From a virus (taxonomy: Duplodnaviria > Heunggongvirae > Uroviricota > Caudoviricetes): a stretch of 7,052 bases of DNA. Of this stretch, positions 1 through 7,052 are shown in pieces. Numbering within the stretch: position 1 is the first letter of the stretch; the number at the start of each line of letters is the position of its first letter. The translations under genes were made by a program, and so were the position numbers. Location of the stretch: the IMG/VR virus record IMGVR_UViG_2778261417_000006. One strand, given 5' to 3'. A model generated the notes under the pieces. That model ran no database searches. It saw nothing but the letters and a program-made list of their open reading frames with translations, and had not been told where the DNA came from.

Positions 1-130
1 GAATCTGAGGCAGCACCTGGCACGGCTGGGACGGAAGTCGCTGTCGTTCTCAAAATCGGTGGAGCTGCATGACAAAGTCATCGGGCATTATCTGAACATA
101 AAACACTATCAGTAAGTTGGAGTCATTACC
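1..130 (+). mobile_element. IS1 right end, partial and window-truncated (3' end of insB plus terminal inverted repeat)
   Basis: Positions 2-115 translate to [37 protein letters not shown]-stop, the InsB C-terminus as I recall it. The element ends ...CTATCAGTAAGTTGGAGTCATTACC at 130, matching the IS1 terminal repeat. Bases 1-130 are the exact reverse complement of 6923-7052. Confidence 0.93.
2..115 (+). CDS. insB: IS1 transposase InsB, C-terminal fragment (gene continues upstream of the window)
   Basis: Open frame from the window edge to TAA at 113-115; the translation matches the InsB C-terminus from memory. Confidence 0.85.
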
Positions 131-747
131 GGGATCGCGTTCTTAATATCAATGAAACCGCTGATGTATGGTCTTATGCTTACGGTAATAATTTGCTAAC
201 TCTGTCATCAATATATAACCGAAGAATAATGGTTATCTGCCTGGTGTTTGGTTGCCGACAGCAGGAGGCGAGGCTATCCACCTGGGACGAATGGGATTTA
301 AAAAACTGGGTATGGACAGTCCCAAAAGAGCACAGCAAAAACAAGGAGGCTATAGTAAGGCCTGTTCCTGACGGAATAAAACAATGGATCGTTAATCTTT
401 ACGCAGAAACAAAAAATCGCGGTTATGTTGTCGGTTGTGCTTTGCAAAGGGCGACAATAACAGGGGCTGCAAACAGAATATGCAGGCGTCTTGGTCATGA
501 TACTAATGGCTTGTGGTGCATACATGATTTCAGGCGCACATTTTCCACTACGCTTAATGATATGGGGGCGGATCCTTATATTGTCGAACTTCTTTTAGGT
601 CATAAAGTGAAAGGGGTTGCTGGTGTTTACAATAAAAGCAGGCATATAAAGAAAAAACTTGAGGTGCTTAATATGTGGGTTAATTACCTTAATACGATAG
701 CAGGATTTAACAACAACGTTATCGAGCTTAATAAAGAGGTGGTGTGA
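131..747 (+). pseudogene. int: Tyrosine recombinase (P4-type phage integrase), C-terminal catalytic domain only; 5' part interrupted by IS1
   Basis: The frame of the 193..747 ORF stays open back across the IS1 junction at 130/131, with no native start. The translation carries catalytic-domain hallmarks: ARLSTWDEWDL...WTVPKEHSKNK, box II HDFRRTFSTTL, and LLGH...GVAGVY with the presumed catalytic Tyr. About 205 aa are present against roughly 400 expected. Confidence 0.88.
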
Positions 748-748
748 T

Positions 749-1006
749 ATGGCAATTTATTCTCTTGTTGATGAAAACGATTTGCGCACAATGAAGGACA
801 TTGATCGGTTCATTCGTGAAAAAGAGTGCATAGCACTTACCACGCTGGCAAACTCAACACGCTGGAAAATGGAGCAGGCAGGTAAATTCCCGCGACGTAT
901 CAAGATCGGTGAACGTGCTGCAGGGTATCGACTTTCAGAGGTTCAGGCATGGATCCGTGGTGAGTGGCATCCTGGATGGAAACCTGGAAAAACAAAACAG
1001 CAATAA
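749..1006 (+). CDS. alpA: AlpA-family phage transcriptional regulator / excisionase-like DNA-binding protein
   Basis: 85 aa. The ATG lies 1 nt after the int stop and has an AGAGG-type SD. The motif IALTTLANSTRWKMEQAGKFPRRIKIGERAAGYRLSEVQAWI fits the AlpA/Xis helix-turn-helix signature (GxFP...W...ev..W). Confidence 0.8.
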   Translation: MAIYSLVDENDLRTMKDIDRFIREKECIALTTLANSTRWKMEQAGKFPRRIKIGERAAGYRLSEVQAWIRGEWHPGWKPGKTKQQ

Positions 1007-1018
1007 CCAGTAAATAAT

Positions 1019-1042
1019 GCCCCTCATCACGAGGGGTTTTTT
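1019..1042 (+). terminator. Rho-independent terminator after alpA
   Basis: Stem CCCCTC (1020-1025), loop ATCAC, stem GAGGGG (1031-1036), then TTTTTT (1037-1042). Confidence 0.75.
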
Positions 1043-1062
1043 GTCTATAAGGTAAAAACGCG

Positions 1063-1641
1063 ATGAATAAAAATATTGCCGTGACGGGCAAGGGGTACGC
1101 TCGTCCAGTGAAAAAATTCTGCGATATTCGTGATCTCGTCGTTCTGCGCTTTGATAGTGTGAACGTTCGTGTGGTGTATCTGAACGGCGATCCGTGGTTT
1201 GTTGCAAAAGATGTTTGTGCTGCGCTGGAACTAACCAATTCGCGTACGGCGTTGCAGATGCTTGATGATGATGAAAAGGGAGTAAATTTAACTTACACCC
1301 CAGGAGGAAATCAGAATATGAGAATTATCTCTGAGTCAGGTTTCTACAAACTAATAGCCCGCAGCCGCAAAGCAACGACGCCTGGCACATTTGCTCATCG
1401 TTTCAGTAACTGGGTATTCAGAAATGTGATACCAGGTATCAGAAAAACGGGGACTTATGGTATCCCGTGGGGTGCATTACAGGATTTTTCCCGCCGTAAA
1501 GAGCAATATCAAATAAGTGCCAGCGAGAAGGGGAGGGAGCTACAGGCATGTAAGCGCAAAAAGCGTGAGCTGGAGGAAGAAGAAAAAACGCTGATACGTG
1601 AATATCAGCCTGAGTTTTACTTTGGTAACCGCATTCAGTGA
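1063..1641 (+). CDS. Bro-N domain protein (phage antirepressor-like) with charged C-terminal tail
   Basis: 192 aa. Residues about 35-140 (VRVVYLNGDPWFVAKDVCAALELTNSRTALQMLDDDEKGV...TPGGNQNMRIISESGFYKLIARSRKATTPGTFAHRFSNWVFRNVIPGIRKTGTY) match the Bro-N consensus closely. The C-terminus is K/R/E-rich and looks coiled-coil-like. Confidence 0.85.
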   Translation: MNKNIAVTGKGYARPVKKFCDIRDLVVLRFDSVNVRVVYLNGDPWFVAKDVCAALELTNSRTALQMLDDDEKGVNLTYTPGGNQNMRIISESGFYKLIARSRKATTPGTFAHRFSNWVFRNVIPGIRKTGTYGIPWGALQDFSRRKEQYQISASEKGRELQACKRKKRELEEEEKTLIREYQPEFYFGNRIQ

Positions 1642-1650
1642 CAAAACAAA

Positions 1651-1671
1651 GGCGACCGCAAAAGGGTCGCC
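1651..1671 (-). terminator. Hairpin with T-run on the minus strand; candidate terminator for the leftward unit, convergent with the Bro-N gene
   Basis: GGCGACC (1651-1657), loop GCAAAAG, GGTCGCC (1665-1671). The + strand A-rich tract just upstream (1641-1650) reads as a U-run on the minus strand. Confidence 0.5.
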
Positions 1672-1737
1672 AGTGGGAACAAGGGAAAACAAAAGCATCA
1701 CCAACAATGCCACATTTGCGGCTGGTGGGCAATGTGA

Positions 1738-1917
1738 TCAGTCAGATTTGGTTCGTTCCAAGGTTTGCAACGAGAGCTTTTTCCTGTGCTCTTTAAGGAA
1801 TTTCTCAAGAGCAAACGAACAAGGTGCGAATCTTTCTGATTCATGTTCATGCGCTATATTTTTGCGTCGTCTCTTACGAGTTGGTGATGGTGTTTTGGTT
1901 GATTCTGTGTCGCTCAT
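1738..1917 (-). CDS. Hypothetical small basic protein, 59 aa (absent from the supplied ORF track)
   Basis: Hand translation of the minus strand gives MSDTESTKTPSPTRKRRRKNIAHEHESERFAPCSFALEKFLKEHRKKLSLQTLERTKSD-stop. It sits 57 bp downstream of the 101-aa minus-strand gene, has an AGGA about 8 nt upstream, and the minus-oriented hairpin lies about 70 bp beyond its stop. Confidence 0.4.
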   Translation of the reverse strand: MSDTESTKTPSPTRKRRRKNIAHEHESERFAPCSFALEKFLKEHRKKLSLQTLERTKSD

Positions 1918-1974
1918 GGTGCTGTCCTGTAAAGCAATGCGCCTGCGTTCCTCAAACTATGGCGCTGATATTGG

Positions 1975-2280
1975 CTATTCATGCTCTTTGACCTTGCGTC
2001 GCTGGAGTTCTTCACGCGCGACGGTGACGAGTTGCCCGATCTCCTCGGCTGCTTTGATGCCGATTTGTTCGACCTTAGCCAGGGCATCCAGTGACGACAC
2101 AAGGGGATTTTCTCCGCTGCCTTCTGCTTGGCGGCGGGCTATTTCTCCGCGCATGGCGGTTACGATAAATCCGGCATTGCTTTCACCGTCCAGCTTAACG
2201 GATTCCATCCCTTGCATAACATCTAGTGGGACTCTGACAGTTGTCAGTTGTGATTTTGCGTTTTTGTTAGCCGTTGCCAT
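1975..2280 (-). CDS. Hypothetical 101-aa protein; candidate DNA-binding regulator of the element (possibly ribbon-helix-helix-like)
   Basis: AGGAG SD 8 nt upstream of the ATG. It is transcribed divergently from the rightward operon across a palindromic operator region. The N-terminal segment TTVRVPLDVMQGMESVKL is compatible with a beta-strand plus helix RHH fold, but the family is not recognised with certainty. Confidence 0.5.
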   Translation of the reverse strand: MATANKNAKSQLTTVRVPLDVMQGMESVKLDGESNAGFIVTAMRGEIARRQAEGSGENPLVSSLDALAKVEQIGIKAAEEIGQLVTVAREELQRRKVKEHE

Positions 2281-2301
2281 TTCTGAAACTCCTAATCATC
2301 G

Positions 2302-2379
2302 GTGTGTTTCAGTATACACAAAAAAAGAAATACAAAAAGCCTTGACGTGTGTTTCATGCGCTCATAACATGAAACACAC
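2302..2379. promoter_or_regulatory. Divergent promoter/operator region
   Basis: Perfect inverted repeat GTGTGTTTCATG (2347-2358) / CATGAAACACAC (2368-2379) with a 9-bp spacer. A third half-site GTGTGTTTCA sits at 2302-2311. Candidate + promoter: -35 TTGACG (2342-2347), 17 bp, -10 TAACAT (2365-2370). Candidate minus promoter: -10 TATACT (complement of 2311-2316). Confidence 0.6.
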
Positions 2380-2470
2380 CGAAAGGATTGTTGAAATACA
2401 AAGAGCAACGCCCCGCAGTGCTGGGAACACATACGGGGCGTCTAACCAACAACGTAAACTAGGAGCCGTT

Positions 2471-2668
2471 ATGGTTGCTGTAAATCATATACCACACCTT
2501 GTACACACACAAACGGCCTTTGTGTGGCGTTTTCTGGCACTGAGTGCCGGAGAATCTCAAATCATCCACGTAACCGCCTGGACGGAACGCGAAGCGCGTA
2601 GCCGTTGCCCGTCCGGTTGTGTTGCTGTATTCGCTGCAAAAATCCGCCAGGGAGTGAGTCATGCTTAA
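2471..2668 (+). CDS. Hypothetical protein, 65 aa; likely first gene of the rightward operon
   Basis: AGGAG SD 5 nt upstream of ATG 2471. Its stop overlaps the start of the next ORF by 8 nt. It is the 3' end of the long 1598..2668 stop-free frame in the ORF track. Confidence 0.45.
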   Translation: MVAVNHIPHLVHTQTAFVWRFLALSAGESQIIHVTAWTEREARSRCPSGCVAVFAAKIRQGVSHA

Positions 2669-2846
2669 AACCTTCCGTGTATTTGCCCGAGCTGTTAACC
2701 CAATAGGCCACACAATTGGTATCGCTCAGAATGTGAAGGCTGTTAATGTTCAGACGGCTATTGCTGCGGTGAGAAGCGAATCATCAGAATATGGCTTATC
2801 ACAAGTCATTATTTCAGCAGTGTATGAATTAAAAGAGGTGCATTAA
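2661..2846 (+). CDS. Hypothetical protein, 61 aa
   Basis: GGGAG SD; stop TAA overlaps the next ATG as TAATG (translational coupling). Confidence 0.5.
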   Translation: MLKTFRVFARAVNPIGHTIGIAQNVKAVNVQTAIAAVRSESSEYGLSQVIISAVYELKEVH

Positions 2847-3037
2847 TGCAGGAAATTACATTACACGAAGCCGCTGAACGTGCGCACCAGACAGAAATTA
2901 TTTGCCGCCTTCTTGAGGTATACCCGAACAAAATTACAGATGCTGATATATCCGCACTGGCGAGCCTACTGGCGCGTCTTTCGGGAAGTGTCGCTAGTTT
3001 TTTGATTGAGGAAGAAAGTAAGCTGGTGGGGGATTAA
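2846..3037 (+). CDS. Hypothetical acidic protein, 63 aa
   Basis: AGAGG SD; stop TAA is immediately followed by the next ATG (coupled). Confidence 0.5.
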   Translation: MQEITLHEAAERAHQTEIICRLLEVYPNKITDADISALASLLARLSGSVASFLIEEESKLVGD

Positions 3038-3259
3038 ATGAATACAGAACGGGAAGTCTTTTTTAAATTGTTAGCATGTGCAGAAAGTTCATTAACTTTA
3101 AATAATTCAGCAAAAGCAATATTAAATATGTGGCTTGATTGCATAAATGACAATGAAGATGCAAATATTGCTTATGGCCTGTTGTCACTTATTGATGAAT
3201 CAGCAGAAAAACTCAATGACGCAATAAATAGTGCCCTGCTATCAAATAAGTCGAGTTAA
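3038..3259 (+). CDS. Hypothetical acidic protein, 73 aa, encoded in a markedly AT-rich segment (candidate moron)
   Basis: GGGGGA SD 4 nt upstream. By eye this ORF is about one-third GC, well below the flanking genes. Confidence 0.5.
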   Translation: MNTEREVFFKLLACAESSLTLNNSAKAILNMWLDCINDNEDANIAYGLLSLIDESAEKLNDAINSALLSNKSS

Positions 3260-3276
3260 GTCGAGGAATAAATAAT

Positions 3277-3576
3277 ATGGAAATGAAAAATTCTGGCTTT
3301 ATTGCCAGCGGCCCCGCTCGACCTGAATTTATGAACGGCGATATTTACCGCGATAAATACGGCGGCACGGTAACGATTAAAGGCGTGGCAGAACGGCGCA
3401 TCACTTACCGCCGTGAGGGGTATAGCTATGACTGCGTGATGCCTGTTTATCAGTTCCGGCGTGATTTTTCCCTGGTATATGCCGCACCCCGCAGTAAGCC
3501 CATCAGCAGGGAAAAAGCGTGGGGAAATATCCAGAAAATGAAAACCATGATTAACGGATTCAGAGGTAAAAAATGA
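3277..3576 (+). CDS. Hypothetical protein, 99 aa; immediately upstream of and overlapping the primase-like gene
   Basis: GAGGA SD; ATGA start/stop overlap with the 584-aa ORF. Confidence 0.55.
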   Translation: MEMKNSGFIASGPARPEFMNGDIYRDKYGGTVTIKGVAERRITYRREGYSYDCVMPVYQFRRDFSLVYAAPRSKPISREKAWGNIQKMKTMINGFRGKK

Positions 3577-5327
3577 AACTGGCACCGAACGTAAAACAGC
3601 AGTCACGCGGCATAAAACACAAAGGAACAGAAGTAATTATTTTTGCGGGTAGTGATGCCTGGGCACACGCGAAACAATGGCAGGAACATGATGCGCGTAT
3701 GGCCGGAGATAATGAGCCTCCTGTGTGGCTTGGGGAGCAGCAGCTATCCGAACTGGATAATCTGCAAATTGTGCCGGAAGGCCGAAAATCAGCACGCATA
3801 TACAGGGCCGGATATCTTGCGCCTGTAATGATAAAGGCGATTGGTCAGAAGCTGGCGGCAGCAGGCGTACAGGATGCAAATTTTTATCCTGAGGGTATGC
3901 ACGGCCAGGAGGTGCAGAACTGGCGCGAATATCTGGCCCGTGAACGCCAGAATCTTTCTGATGGTCTGGTCATTGAGCTTCCGGTAAAGCAAAAGGCGCA
4001 ACTTTCGCAGATGGCGGACAGTGAGCGCGCGCAGTTGCTTGCCGATCGCTTTGATGGCGTTTGCGTACATCCTGAAAGTGAAATCGTTCACGTATGGCGC
4101 GGCGGGGTATGGTGTCCGGTCAGCACAATGGAACTTAGCCGCGAAATGGTGGCGATCTATTCAGAGCACAGGGCCACTTTCAGCAAGCGCGTAATCAATA
4201 ACGCCGTGGAAGCGTTAAAAGTTATTGCCGAACCAATGGGCGAGCCGTCTGGCGATTTGCTGCCGTTCGCCAATGGTGCGCTTGACCTGAAAACGGGGGA
4301 ATTTTCCCCGCACACGCCGGAGAACTGGATCACCACGCACAACGGCATTGAGTACACGCCACCAGCACCAGGGGAGAACATCCGCGATAACGCGCCAAAC
4401 TTTCATAAATGGCTTGAGCACGCAGCCGGAAAAGACCCGCGCAAGATGATGCGTATATGTGCCGCGCTGTACATGATTATGGCGAACCGGTACGACTGGC
4501 AGATGTTTATTGAGGCCACCGGAGACGGCGGGAGCGGTAAAAGTACATTCACACACATAGCCAGCCTTCTGGCAGGGAAACAGAACACGGTAAGCGCTGA
4601 AATGACATCGCTTGATGATGCTGGTGGACGTGCGCAGGTTGTCGGGAGTCGTCTTATCGTCCTGGCTGACCAGCCGAAATATACAGGCGAAGGAACGGGC
4701 ATCAAGAAAATCACAGGCGGCGACCCCGTGGAAATTAACCCGAAATATGAAAAGCGTTTCACGGCGGTAATCAGGGCGGTGGTGCTGGCGACCAACAACA
4801 ACCCGATGATATTCACCGAACGGGCCGGAGGTGTGGCACGTCGTCGCGTGATTTTCCGTTTCGACAATATCGTCAGTGAGGCCGAAAAAGACAGGGAGCT
4901 ACCGGAAAAGATTGCGGCTGAAATCCCCGTTATTATCCGCCGATTGCTGGCGAACTTTACCGACCCTGAGAAGGCACGGGCTTTACTACTGGAACAGCGT
5001 GACGGTGATGAAGCACTGGCAATAAAGCAACAGACGGATCCGGTTATTGAGTTTTGCCAGTTCCTGAATTTTCTGGAGGAAGCGCGCGGCCTGATGATGG
5101 GTGGCGGTGGTGATTCAGTGAAGTACACGACCAGGAACAGCCTTTACCGCGTCTATCTGGCGTTTATGGCATACGCGGGCAGGAGCAAACCGCTAAACGT
5201 GGCTGAGTTCAGCAAGGCCATGAAGCCAGCGGCGAAAGTTTACGGGCATGAATATATTACGCGAAAAGTTAAGGGAGTAACGCAGACCAACGCAATTACA
5301 ACAGACGATTGCGACGCGTTTTTATAA
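3573..5327 (+). CDS. Replication protein: P4-family primase C-terminal domain / D5-like SF3 helicase
   Basis: 584 aa. Walker A GDGGSGKST is encoded at 4521-4547. The block LIVLADQP...KKITGGDPVEINPKYEKRFTAVIRAVVLATNNNPMIFTERAGGVARRRVIFRF resembles the phage/plasmid primase P4-family C-terminal signature. GAGG SD 6 nt upstream. Confidence 0.82.
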   Translation: MKLAPNVKQQSRGIKHKGTEVIIFAGSDAWAHAKQWQEHDARMAGDNEPPVWLGEQQLSELDNLQIVPEGRKSARIYRAGYLAPVMIKAIGQKLAAAGVQDANFYPEGMHGQEVQNWREYLARERQNLSDGLVIELPVKQKAQLSQMADSERAQLLADRFDGVCVHPESEIVHVWRGGVWCPVSTMELSREMVAIYSEHRATFSKRVINNAVEALKVIAEPMGEPSGDLLPFANGALDLKTGEFSPHTPENWITTHNGIEYTPPAPGENIRDNAPNFHKWLEHAAGKDPRKMMRICAALYMIMANRYDWQMFIEATGDGGSGKSTFTHIASLLAGKQNTVSAEMTSLDDAGGRAQVVGSRLIVLADQPKYTGEGTGIKKITGGDPVEINPKYEKRFTAVIRAVVLATNNNPMIFTERAGGVARRRVIFRFDNIVSEAEKDRELPEKIAAEIPVIIRRLLANFTDPEKARALLLEQRDGDEALAIKQQTDPVIEFCQFLNFLEEARGLMMGGGGDSVKYTTRNSLYRVYLAFMAYAGRSKPLNVAEFSKAMKPAAKVYGHEYITRKVKGVTQTNAITTDDCDAFL

Positions 5328-5340
5328 TTTTTTGTAAAAG

Positions 5341-5564
5341 CCATCTACCCCATCTACCTGAACGAAATAAACGCATATTATTCAACATGATAAGTGGGTA
5401 TAGGGCTAGGTAGAAGGCTAATAAAAGCTCTCTACCTCTTCTACCTGATTTTATCAGTTTCAGGTAGCAGGGTAGACGGCAGGTAGAGGAGTCAAAAAAG
5501 CTATCTACCCGCTGAAAGCGGCGCCATTACTGACATGATGAGCATTCGGGTAGATGGGTAGAGG
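5341..5564. repeat. Iteron cluster; candidate origin of replication
   Basis: Eleven copies of the pentamer CTACC/GGTAG in 224 bp. Tandem CCATCTACC x2 at 5341-5358 is mirrored by GGGTAGATGGGTAGAGG at 5548-5564. Other copies: 5409-5414, 5431-5436, 5440-5445, 5463-5467, 5471-5475, 5482-5486, 5504-5509. An AT-rich core lies at 5359-5394. Confidence 0.65.
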
Positions 5565-5613
5565 GGGGGAGGCACAACTAAAAACTTTTTAAACGAGGGG
5601 GGGGTGAAAATAA

Positions 5614-5928
5614 ATGCGCATACATAAAAATCACTTAACAAACATGCCAGCCGAAAACATGAATCAGGGGCGACAAATGACCAAAATTCGCAGAGACAGA
5701 ACACAGGCAAAATATAAAGCGTTAGACATGACAGAGCTTTCCTTAAAGGTGGCAATCAAAGCGATAGACCACCACACACGGGCAGGATACGCGAAGGAAC
5801 ATCCCGACCTGATAAGCGCATTCATGACCACAGCAGCGGCAAACTTTGCCACGCTGACAGAACGGGAGATTGCCGAAGCGGAACAGGTGACAACCATCAA
5901 TGTTAAAACCGGAGAGCAGACAGCATGA
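5614..5928 (+). CDS. Hypothetical protein (104 aa from ATG 5614; alternative start at 5677 gives 83 aa)
   Basis: Its stop overlaps the SSB start (ATGA). The 5677 start has an AGGGG SD at 6-nt spacing; the 5614 start follows a G8 tract. Confidence 0.55.
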   Translation: MRIHKNHLTNMPAENMNQGRQMTKIRRDRTQAKYKALDMTELSLKVAIKAIDHHTRAGYAKEHPDLISAFMTTAAANFATLTEREIAEAEQVTTINVKTGEQTA

Positions 5929-6347
5929 CAGCACAGATAGCGGCTTACGGGCGGCTGGTGGCTGACCCGCAGTTAAAGACCACCAGCAAAGGGACACAAA
6001 TGGCGATGGCGAGTATGGCGGTTCCCCTGCCGTGCAGCCAGGCAGATGACGGAACGGCGACGATGTGGTTATCCGTCCTGGCGTTTGGCAGACAGGCCGA
6101 CGCACTGGCAAAACACCACAAAGGCGAACTGGTGAGCGTGGCGGGTAACATGCAGGTAAGCCAGTGGACAGGCCAGAACGGCGAAACGCGGCGGGGCTGG
6201 CAGGTTATCGCAGACAGCGTAATCAGTGCGCGAACGGCGCGACCGGGCGGCAAAAAAGGCCAGCAGGGGCAGGCCACTGACGCACTGAACAGGGCAAAAC
6301 AACAGTCGGGGAATGATGATCCGTACGGCGATAATATACCGTTTTAA
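5925..6347 (+). CDS. ssb: Single-stranded DNA-binding protein (SSB family)
   Basis: 140 aa. The OB-fold region aligns with E. coli SSB by eye (GRL.ADP...W..V.AFG..A......KG..V...G......W). The C-terminus ends ...DDPYGDNIPF, resembling the conserved SSB tail DDDIPF. Confidence 0.85.
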   Translation: MTAQIAAYGRLVADPQLKTTSKGTQMAMASMAVPLPCSQADDGTATMWLSVLAFGRQADALAKHHKGELVSVAGNMQVSQWTGQNGETRRGWQVIADSVISARTARPGGKKGQQGQATDALNRAKQQSGNDDPYGDNIPF

Positions 6348-6364
6348 ATTCTGCAAACAAAAAG

Positions 6365-6393
6365 ATGCCGGAAAAAAATAGATTTTCCGGCAT
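6365..6393. terminator. Perfect 11-bp-arm hairpin downstream of ssb
   Basis: ATGCCGGAAAA (6365-6375), 7-nt loop, TTTTCCGGCAT (6383-6393). The U-run is on the minus-strand side; termination on the + strand is plausible but weaker. Confidence 0.5.
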
Positions 6394-6564
6394 GCTACAT
6401 AAATCCCGACCAAAGGAAGTAAATACATTAACACGAATTATCAGCACTGAAGTTGTTACGGCATATTTTATACAACATTGCACTTGGTTGCATGTGTTCG
6501 CATAGCAGACATCGGTAATAGAATATATTCACAATTATTTGTAATGAATGTAAAGAGGATGAGT

Positions 6565-6927
6565 ATGGTTGATTTATATTCGCCTACACAGCTTGTGCAG
6601 GTGGCTAATGCTGAAGATGTGCAAAAAAAATTAAATGCGTTGTTTACCAGTTTGTTTTTCACTCGCTCGGTAATGTTTGAATCGAGAGACATTATTCTTG
6701 ATACGATCGACGATCCAAATATCCCGATCGCGGCGTTTTGCTCTCCTATGGTGGGCAGTAAAGTTTCACGAGATGAGGGATACGAATCAAAAACAATTCG
6801 TCCAGGTTATATGAAGCCGAAAAGCAGCATTGATCCAAATAAGTTAGCTGTGCGCCCTGCTGGTGTGTCACCTGAGCAATACAATGCTTTTGGGGCGCGT
6901 AATATTAAAGTTAAACAGGCGAGGTAA
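6565..6927 (+). pseudogene. Lambda gpE-like major capsid protein, N-terminal about 120 codons only; truncated by IS1
   Basis: The translation from 6565 (MVDLYSPTQLVQVANAEDVQKKLNALFTSLFFTRS...FCSPMVGSKVSRDEGYESKTIRPGYMKPK...) resembles the lambda E N-terminus as I recall it (LFLRLFFRES...YVSPIVSGEVIRSRGG...TPGYVKPK). AAGAGG SD 6 nt upstream. The stop TAA (6925-6927) is supplied by the IS1 terminal sequence GGTAATGA. An alternative start at 6559 (MSMVDLY...) has no SD spacing. Confidence 0.65.
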
Positions 6928-7052
6928 TGACTCCAACTTACTGATAGTGTTTTATGTTCAGATAATGCCCGATGACTTTGTCATGCAGCTCCACCGATTT
7001 TGAGAACGACAGCGACTTCCGTCCCAGCCGTGCCAGGTGCTGCCTCAGATTC
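6923..7052 (-). mobile_element. IS1 right end, partial and window-truncated, inverted relative to the copy at 1-130
   Basis: Exact reverse complement of 1-130; begins GGTAATGACTCCAACTTACTGATAG. Confidence 0.93.
6938..7051 (-). CDS. insB: IS1 transposase InsB, C-terminal fragment (gene continues beyond the window)
   Basis: Mirror image of 2-115; the stop is the complement of 6938-6940. Confidence 0.85.

Follow-up and report, generated by a model that had tools for sequence, protein, structure and literature searches.

Two separate IS1 insertions most likely explain the identical inverted ends of a 7-kb contig from an Escherichia coli phage satellite

Introduction

Composite transposons built on IS1 are known in the Tn1681 and Tn9 types, and in Tn1681 the two IS1 copies are inverted. 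Such transposons contain two complete IS copies that are competent for transposition. From the work of So, Heffron and McCarthy on Tn1681 in 1979, inverted IS1 pairs are said to be able to mobilise the DNA which they bracket. According to established transposition models, the set of four junctions is alike for independent insertions in inverted orientation, for replicative transposition with inversion and for a later recombination flip. Among the phage satellites, the PICI elements of Enterobacteria are characterised by an integrase-alpA-primase arrangement (SatelliteFinder families, PMC10085698), and the cf-PICIs are defined by their own portal, head-tail connector and adaptor besides the capsid (PMC10085698). 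A passage in the discussion of the same paper mentions that satellites within prophages have been reported previously (PMC10085698, its ref. 47).

In our study, the window, by which the whole stretch of 7,052 bp is meant, was compared with these systems. It shares with the Tn1681 and Tn9 types two IS1 copies which bracket a segment, inverted as in Tn1681. However, the bracketed DNA belongs here to a resident island that still sits at its native site, the left IS1 probably carries a duplication of its own inside the integrase gene, and nothing was found that points to past movement of the window's unit. The arms of the window have the terminal repeat and the insB end of simple IS1 (IS1A/IS1B) insertions in E. 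coli chromosomes and are 100% identical to annotated copies, and the 9-bp target duplication predicted for the left copy resembles those of IS1 copies in E. coli O121. Nothing of substance differs from such insertions, the last 130 nt of each copy being visible. The DNA between the IS1 ends has in common with the Enterobacteria PICI satellites the integrase, the alpA-like gene, a D5/P4-alpha-like primase next to iterons, and the SSB. On the other hand, its island differs from them by genes for a lambda-E-like capsid, a D-like decoration protein and a small terminase, and the island is IS1-broken in the window's strain.

Results

Terminal arms of the window

The sequence-only reading had described the first and last 130 bp as exact reverse complements, and both the reading of the ends and a repeat finder confirmed this, positions 1-130 and 6923-7052 being 100% complementary. 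The identity breaks sharply at 130/131 and 6922/6923, beyond which GGGATCGCG... and TCGCCTGTT... follow. A perfect inverted match of 130 nt cannot arise by chance. The two arms are as follows.

1..130, + strand: last 130 nt of IS1 (IS1 639-768), body of the element left of the window; insB 3' end at 2-115, stop at 113-115, right terminal inverted repeat at 108-130
6923..7052, - strand: last 130 nt of a second IS1 in opposite orientation, body right of the window; right terminal inverted repeat at 6923-6945

The match to IS1 639-768, the InsB C-terminus and the right terminal repeat agree with the earlier proposal that both arms are right ends of IS1, inverted with respect to each other and with their termini facing inward. 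Frame 2-115 encodes the C-terminus of InsB and its stop codon (113-115) lies inside the right terminal repeat. With reference to the 23-bp terminal inverted repeat of IS1 (GGTRATGMYKCCAACTTAYTGAT), bases 108-130 and 6923-6945 were found to read GGTAATGACTCCAACTTACTGAT on the IS1 strand, which is the reverse complement of bases 108-130. The arm matched three 768-bp IS1A copies of E. coli O121 at 129/130 positions, with the single mismatch at IS1 position 750, and it was identical (130/130) to copies annotated as IS1A or IS1B in many genomes.

Each IS1 has a single right end and both inner junctions are right ends, so that two IS1 right ends in opposite orientation must flank the 6,792-bp segment in the source genome. 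The case put forward earlier, in which both ends join a single IS1, therefore does not hold. A full IS1 of about 768 bp comprises insA, a frameshift site and insB', and its insertion yields a target-site duplication of 8-9 bp. Both copies are presumably complete (768 bp), with 130 nt of each visible in the contig.

The window as a draft contig

The window was found to be the complete draft contig NOSH01000066.1 of assembly GCA_002521985.1, the two sequences being equal. The truncated capsid ORF (6565-6927), which is specific to the junction, led to this contig in an exact-protein look-up. This junction protein is present on four contigs of 5-10 kb each, with an identical contig in two samples, and all contigs on which the look-up found the junction share the gene content of the window. 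No mention of the NOSH assembly was found in the literature searched.

Of the 5,426 complete E. coli genomes, 4,965 contain the 130-nt IS1 arm, with a median of 10 and a maximum of at least 66 sites per genome. The window is a short-read contig, both ends of which stop inside the collapsed multi-copy repeat IS1. The equal length of the two arms is thus a property of the assembly and not of the biology of the element, because the assembler stopped in the collapsed repeat. It had been cautioned before that a contig ending in a repeat would look alike, and this caution proved to be justified, as the window is a whole contig and IS1 ends occur about ten times per E. coli genome.

The window resembles other repeat-collapsed short-read contigs in being an entire contig with both ends in a high-copy, multi-copy repeat. 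A sister case is the contig L006, one end of which is formed by exactly 127 nt from an element of the IS3 family. The overlap of the window differs in being 130 nt rather than the common 127, and does not match the usual k=127. It was considered whether 130 could be k 127 plus a 3-nt shared graph edge arising from a polymorphic IS1 site at 638, and this found no support, as the isoform pair compared varies at 636 and 648 and not at 638. In general, identical inverted ends of a window can merely mark where a short-read assembler halted in a repeat, and this is demonstrably so here.

The interior is a piece of a phage-satellite island

About 50 complete E. coli genomes contain the interior (131-6922) without interruption. 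It is identical at 6792/6792 positions to strain 20Y000092, in which the island is uninterrupted. The island measures about 10.9 kb in its intact form, as in the relatives L001 and L005, and the IS1 termini of the window adjoin positions neighbouring the missing gene halves in this intact island. The following features lie between the arms.

131..747, + strand: 3' part of the tyrosine integrase gene, codons 209-413; first 625 nt cut off by the left IS1; intact gene at L005 5376-6617, window 131 = L005 6001
749..6347, + strand: satellite core, the sequence of genes from alpA-like to SSB
749-1006: alpA-like excisionase/regulator
1063-1641: BRO-N anti-repressor-like
1975-2280, minus strand: ylcI/ynfO-like
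2471-2668: icd-like
within 749..6347: small ORFs
3277-3576: DUF4222
3573-5327: D5_N/DUF5906 primase
5335..5565, both orientations: CATCTACCY iteron-like repeat cluster directly after the primase gene
5925-6347: SSB
6565..6922, + strand: 5' part of the lambda-E-like major capsid gene, 119/346 codons, cut by the right IS1

Beyond the capsid gene, the intact island also encodes a D-like decoration protein, a second AlpA-like regulator and the small terminase subunit, and its bounds are set by an att core of about 13 nt. The relatives L001 and L005 and the family matches show the integrase, alpA and primase/replication module of a PICI-type satellite in an island of the 10-15 kb class, without tail or lysis genes. 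Portal and head-tail connector genes, by which a cf-PICI is in part defined, were not found in the island, which has capsid, decoration and small terminase genes only and thus falls outside the cf-PICI definition.

Nine of the ten matches to CATCTACCY in the window lie within 5335-5565, as compared to 1.9 expected by chance in the whole window, and this cluster is probably the replication origin of the satellite. An imperfect palindrome was also observed at 2333-2393, with 26-nt arms of 81% complementarity and a 9-nt spacer, between the divergent ylcI/ynfO-like and icd-like genes; it may be an operator or a terminator. At the right end of the intact island, outside the window, three 38-nt repeats with a spacing of exactly 54 nt, each with a terminal short palindrome, are present at L005 15509-15654, downstream of the final island ORF. 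These repeats may form a packaging or terminase-binding site.

The portal gene of a lambdoid prophage, DLP12- or Qin-like, was seen to house the intact satellite in three unrelated strains. The portal gene is split at the codons for ...AIVKAMYA..., with the att core of about 13 nt on either side. In the literature searched, no description of a portal-gene target for this type of PICI-like island was found. The portal-gene halves or att copies are located as given below.

L005: 5168-5180 and 16068-16080
L001: 7346-8179 and 19064-19846
L003: 4346-5179 and 16839-17621

Left junction in the integrase gene

The left IS1 splits the integrase gene after 625 nt, which is codon 208 plus one base. The proposed duplication at this junction is the following.

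131..139, + strand: GGGATCGCG, probable target-site duplication (9 bp) made by the left IS1, inner copy; predicted outer-junction protein matches P0001/WP_244588003.1

Under a simple insertion, the outer-left arrangement would be ...CCGGTATAAGGGATCGCG (integrase 5' part and duplication) followed by GGTGATGCTGCCAACTTACTGAT... (IS1 left end). Integrase codons 1-208, the 9 bp GGGATCGCG and the IS1 end were modelled together, and they predict a protein of 212 amino acids which ends in ...SSGIRDRG and takes its stop from the IS1 terminus. This protein is present exactly in public data (P0001 = WP_244588003.1) on two contigs, the longest of 8,450 bp. Its ending is identical whichever IS1 end adjoins, left (GGTGA) or right (GGTAA), and the contigs which carry it may be those of another strain. 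The version of the junction protein with an 8-bp duplication was absent from public data by exact look-up. Further, a partial integrase of 211 amino acids on a 255-kb contig stops at the contig edge, at the same spot. Because the exact junction protein with the 9-bp duplication exists, the left IS1 is best read as a simple in-situ insertion with the integrase gene continuing on its outer side, and not as the boundary of a transposed unit.

The contig L006 (GCA_024755885.1), which has the same truncated-integrase ORF of 184 amino acids, was considered as a sharer of the left IS1 junction and was rejected, as its first 127 nt belong to an IS3-family element. By alignment, this element was inserted about 50 bp away from the left IS1 junction, at window 180/181, and is thus an independent hit. 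L006 has an intact capsid gene, and a shared left junction would have ordered both IS1 insertions in time. The integrase of this satellite has been hit by insertion sequences at three sites, namely by IS1 at window 130/131, by the IS3-family element at about 180/181 in GCA_024755885.1 and by IS1 at integrase nt 511/512 in E. coli O121. Three separate disruptions of the integrase suggest repeated immobilisation of the island.

Right junction in the capsid gene

The right IS1 splits the capsid gene after 358 nt, which is codon 119 plus one base, and the truncated reading frame runs on to a TAA at 6925-6927 within the IS1 terminal repeat. The presumed duplication is listed by analogy with the left side.

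6914..6922, + strand: AACAGGCGA, inner copy of a target duplication presumed for the right IS1

If the right IS1 is likewise a simple insertion, as the analogy suggests, the outer-right arrangement would be ...ATCAGTAAGTTGGCAGCATCACC (IS1 left end) followed by AACAGGCGA (duplication) and TTGTAAATCAGG... (capsid codon 120 onward). Twenty edge-partial capsid proteins predicted for this outer junction, with 0-26 IS1-derived codons and the 9-bp duplication, were all absent, their exact partial ends having been guessed. The capsid C-terminal ORF of 143 amino acids expected from a simple insertion was found in the collection and is non-specific.

Another junction was observed in a close variant of this capsid. 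P0035 (WP_244586675.1) is a partial capsid of 281 amino acids which starts with residues of the IS1 left end (ADRNRSHWSTSKTPSYTKSVSWQHH) and is fused at another codon (…PNKLAV…). It represents a further, independent insertion of IS1 into a capsid gene of this family, and its IS1 is oriented alike.

IS1 copies in the island of E. coli O121

The corresponding island of E. coli O121 contains three IS1 copies. Two of the copies, which served as the positive control, are simple insertions and carry clean 9-bp duplications. In strain 201805972, IS1 copy 1 (L002 5119-5886) is without a target duplication and is flanked by TGCAGGAAATTA and CAATTTTTCTTG. This copy fuses the 3' part of the integrase gene to other satellite-like genes, which include Rha, the TumE toxin-antitoxin, Ash, LvrA-C and an ATP-binding protein, and it is evidence of an IS1-mediated rearrangement.

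Discussion

The most likely explanation, to which we assign a probability of roughly 0.7, is that the window is a whole short-read contig in which 6,792 bp of unique DNA lie between two IS1 copies inserted in situ in a resident satellite. The resident PICI-like phage satellite of the source E. coli strain would contain two oppositely oriented IS1 copies, which interrupt the integrase gene after codon 208 and the major capsid gene after codon 119, and both right ends would face the 6.8-kb segment between them. IS1 would have entered on two separate occasions, each time as a simple insertion that made a 9-bp target duplication of its own. As both junctions are absent from all 5,426 complete E. 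coli genomes, they are rare and lineage-private events.

The same geometry, with right ends at both inner junctions, would be produced exactly by one IS1 insertion followed by intramolecular replicative transposition into the other gene, which inverts the 6.8 kb, and homologous inversion after two insertions would likewise be compatible. The four junctions are identical in the inverted and non-inverted arrangements, so that the junction data fit equally well, and O121 copy 1, which joins unrelated DNA without a duplication, is an IS1-associated rearrangement in this very island family. However, an inversion is required by nothing in the data and independent insertions are common where IS1 is abundant, as in the O121 island, where two of the three copies are simple insertions; we consider an inverted history unlikely. 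Moreover, the reverse complement of the contig is the same kind of object, and hence the direction of the 6.8-kb segment on the chromosome cannot be assigned from the contig. In principle, recombination between both IS1 copies could invert the segment, as the sequence-only reading had also pointed out. A slightly lower probability is given to the right IS1, or both copies, being the boundary of a deletion or recombination, as in O121 copy 1, so that neither the capsid 3' part nor the remainder of the island would lie beyond it. The failure of all 20 predicted outer-right proteins to appear and the duplication-free boundary in O121 point in this direction. On the other hand, this negative is weak with partial ends that had to be guessed, the expected 143-aa capsid ORF is in the collection, though non-specific, and the left side behaves as a simple insertion.

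Equal-length arms and a window that is a contig ending in a repeat would also be seen if the IS1 ends were not physically joined to the segment, through a misjoin or a mixed population. Such a pure assembly artefact is very improbable, as the junctions from unique DNA to IS1 lie within the contig, the truncated-capsid protein is found on four contigs, including an identical one in two samples, and the complementary junction protein exists; a mixed population would probably break the contig at the insertion sites and not extend it 130 nt into IS1. Still less credence is given to the movement of the 6.8-kb segment to this location as a unit by a Tn1681-type composite. The geometry is compatible with it and inverted IS1 pairs are capable of it, and from the Tn1681-type reading proposed earlier the two inverted right ends were retained. 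Its composite-transposon origin was not, as the interior is collinear with and 100% identical to an island which other strains carry unbroken at its native site, and of which the cargo is an internal piece with both boundary genes cut mid-codon. A composite is marked by a single duplication that encloses the whole unit, in surroundings which have no relation to the cargo, whereas beyond the left IS1 the same integrase gene probably goes on, next to a 9-bp duplication belonging to that copy. The same IS-bounded unit would further be expected in different genomic contexts, and neither junction was found in another context among the 5,426 complete genomes. The Tn1681-type reading thus fails two testable defining features.

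Under two separate in-situ insertions, the integrase would be split so that its N-terminal arm-binding part is apart from the catalytic part, and a third of the capsid gene would be left. Excision, through the split integrase, and an own capsid protein have probably been lost by the satellite, which would keep the regulators, the primase, the probable origin (5335-5565) and the SSB. It is very doubtful that the satellite core (alpA, bro, icd-like, primase, origin, ssb) is now an IS1-bounded cassette able to invert or transpose without the split integrase; if true, such a cassette would be a route for the replication module of the satellite onto plasmids or other prophages. The only practical consequence is that the orientation of the contig relative to the chromosome is to be assigned by long reads.

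By knocking out the integrase and capsid genes, IS1 has probably left a defective satellite fixed at its site, and the locus reflects a routine case of the decay of mobile elements by insertion sequences, which is already known biology.
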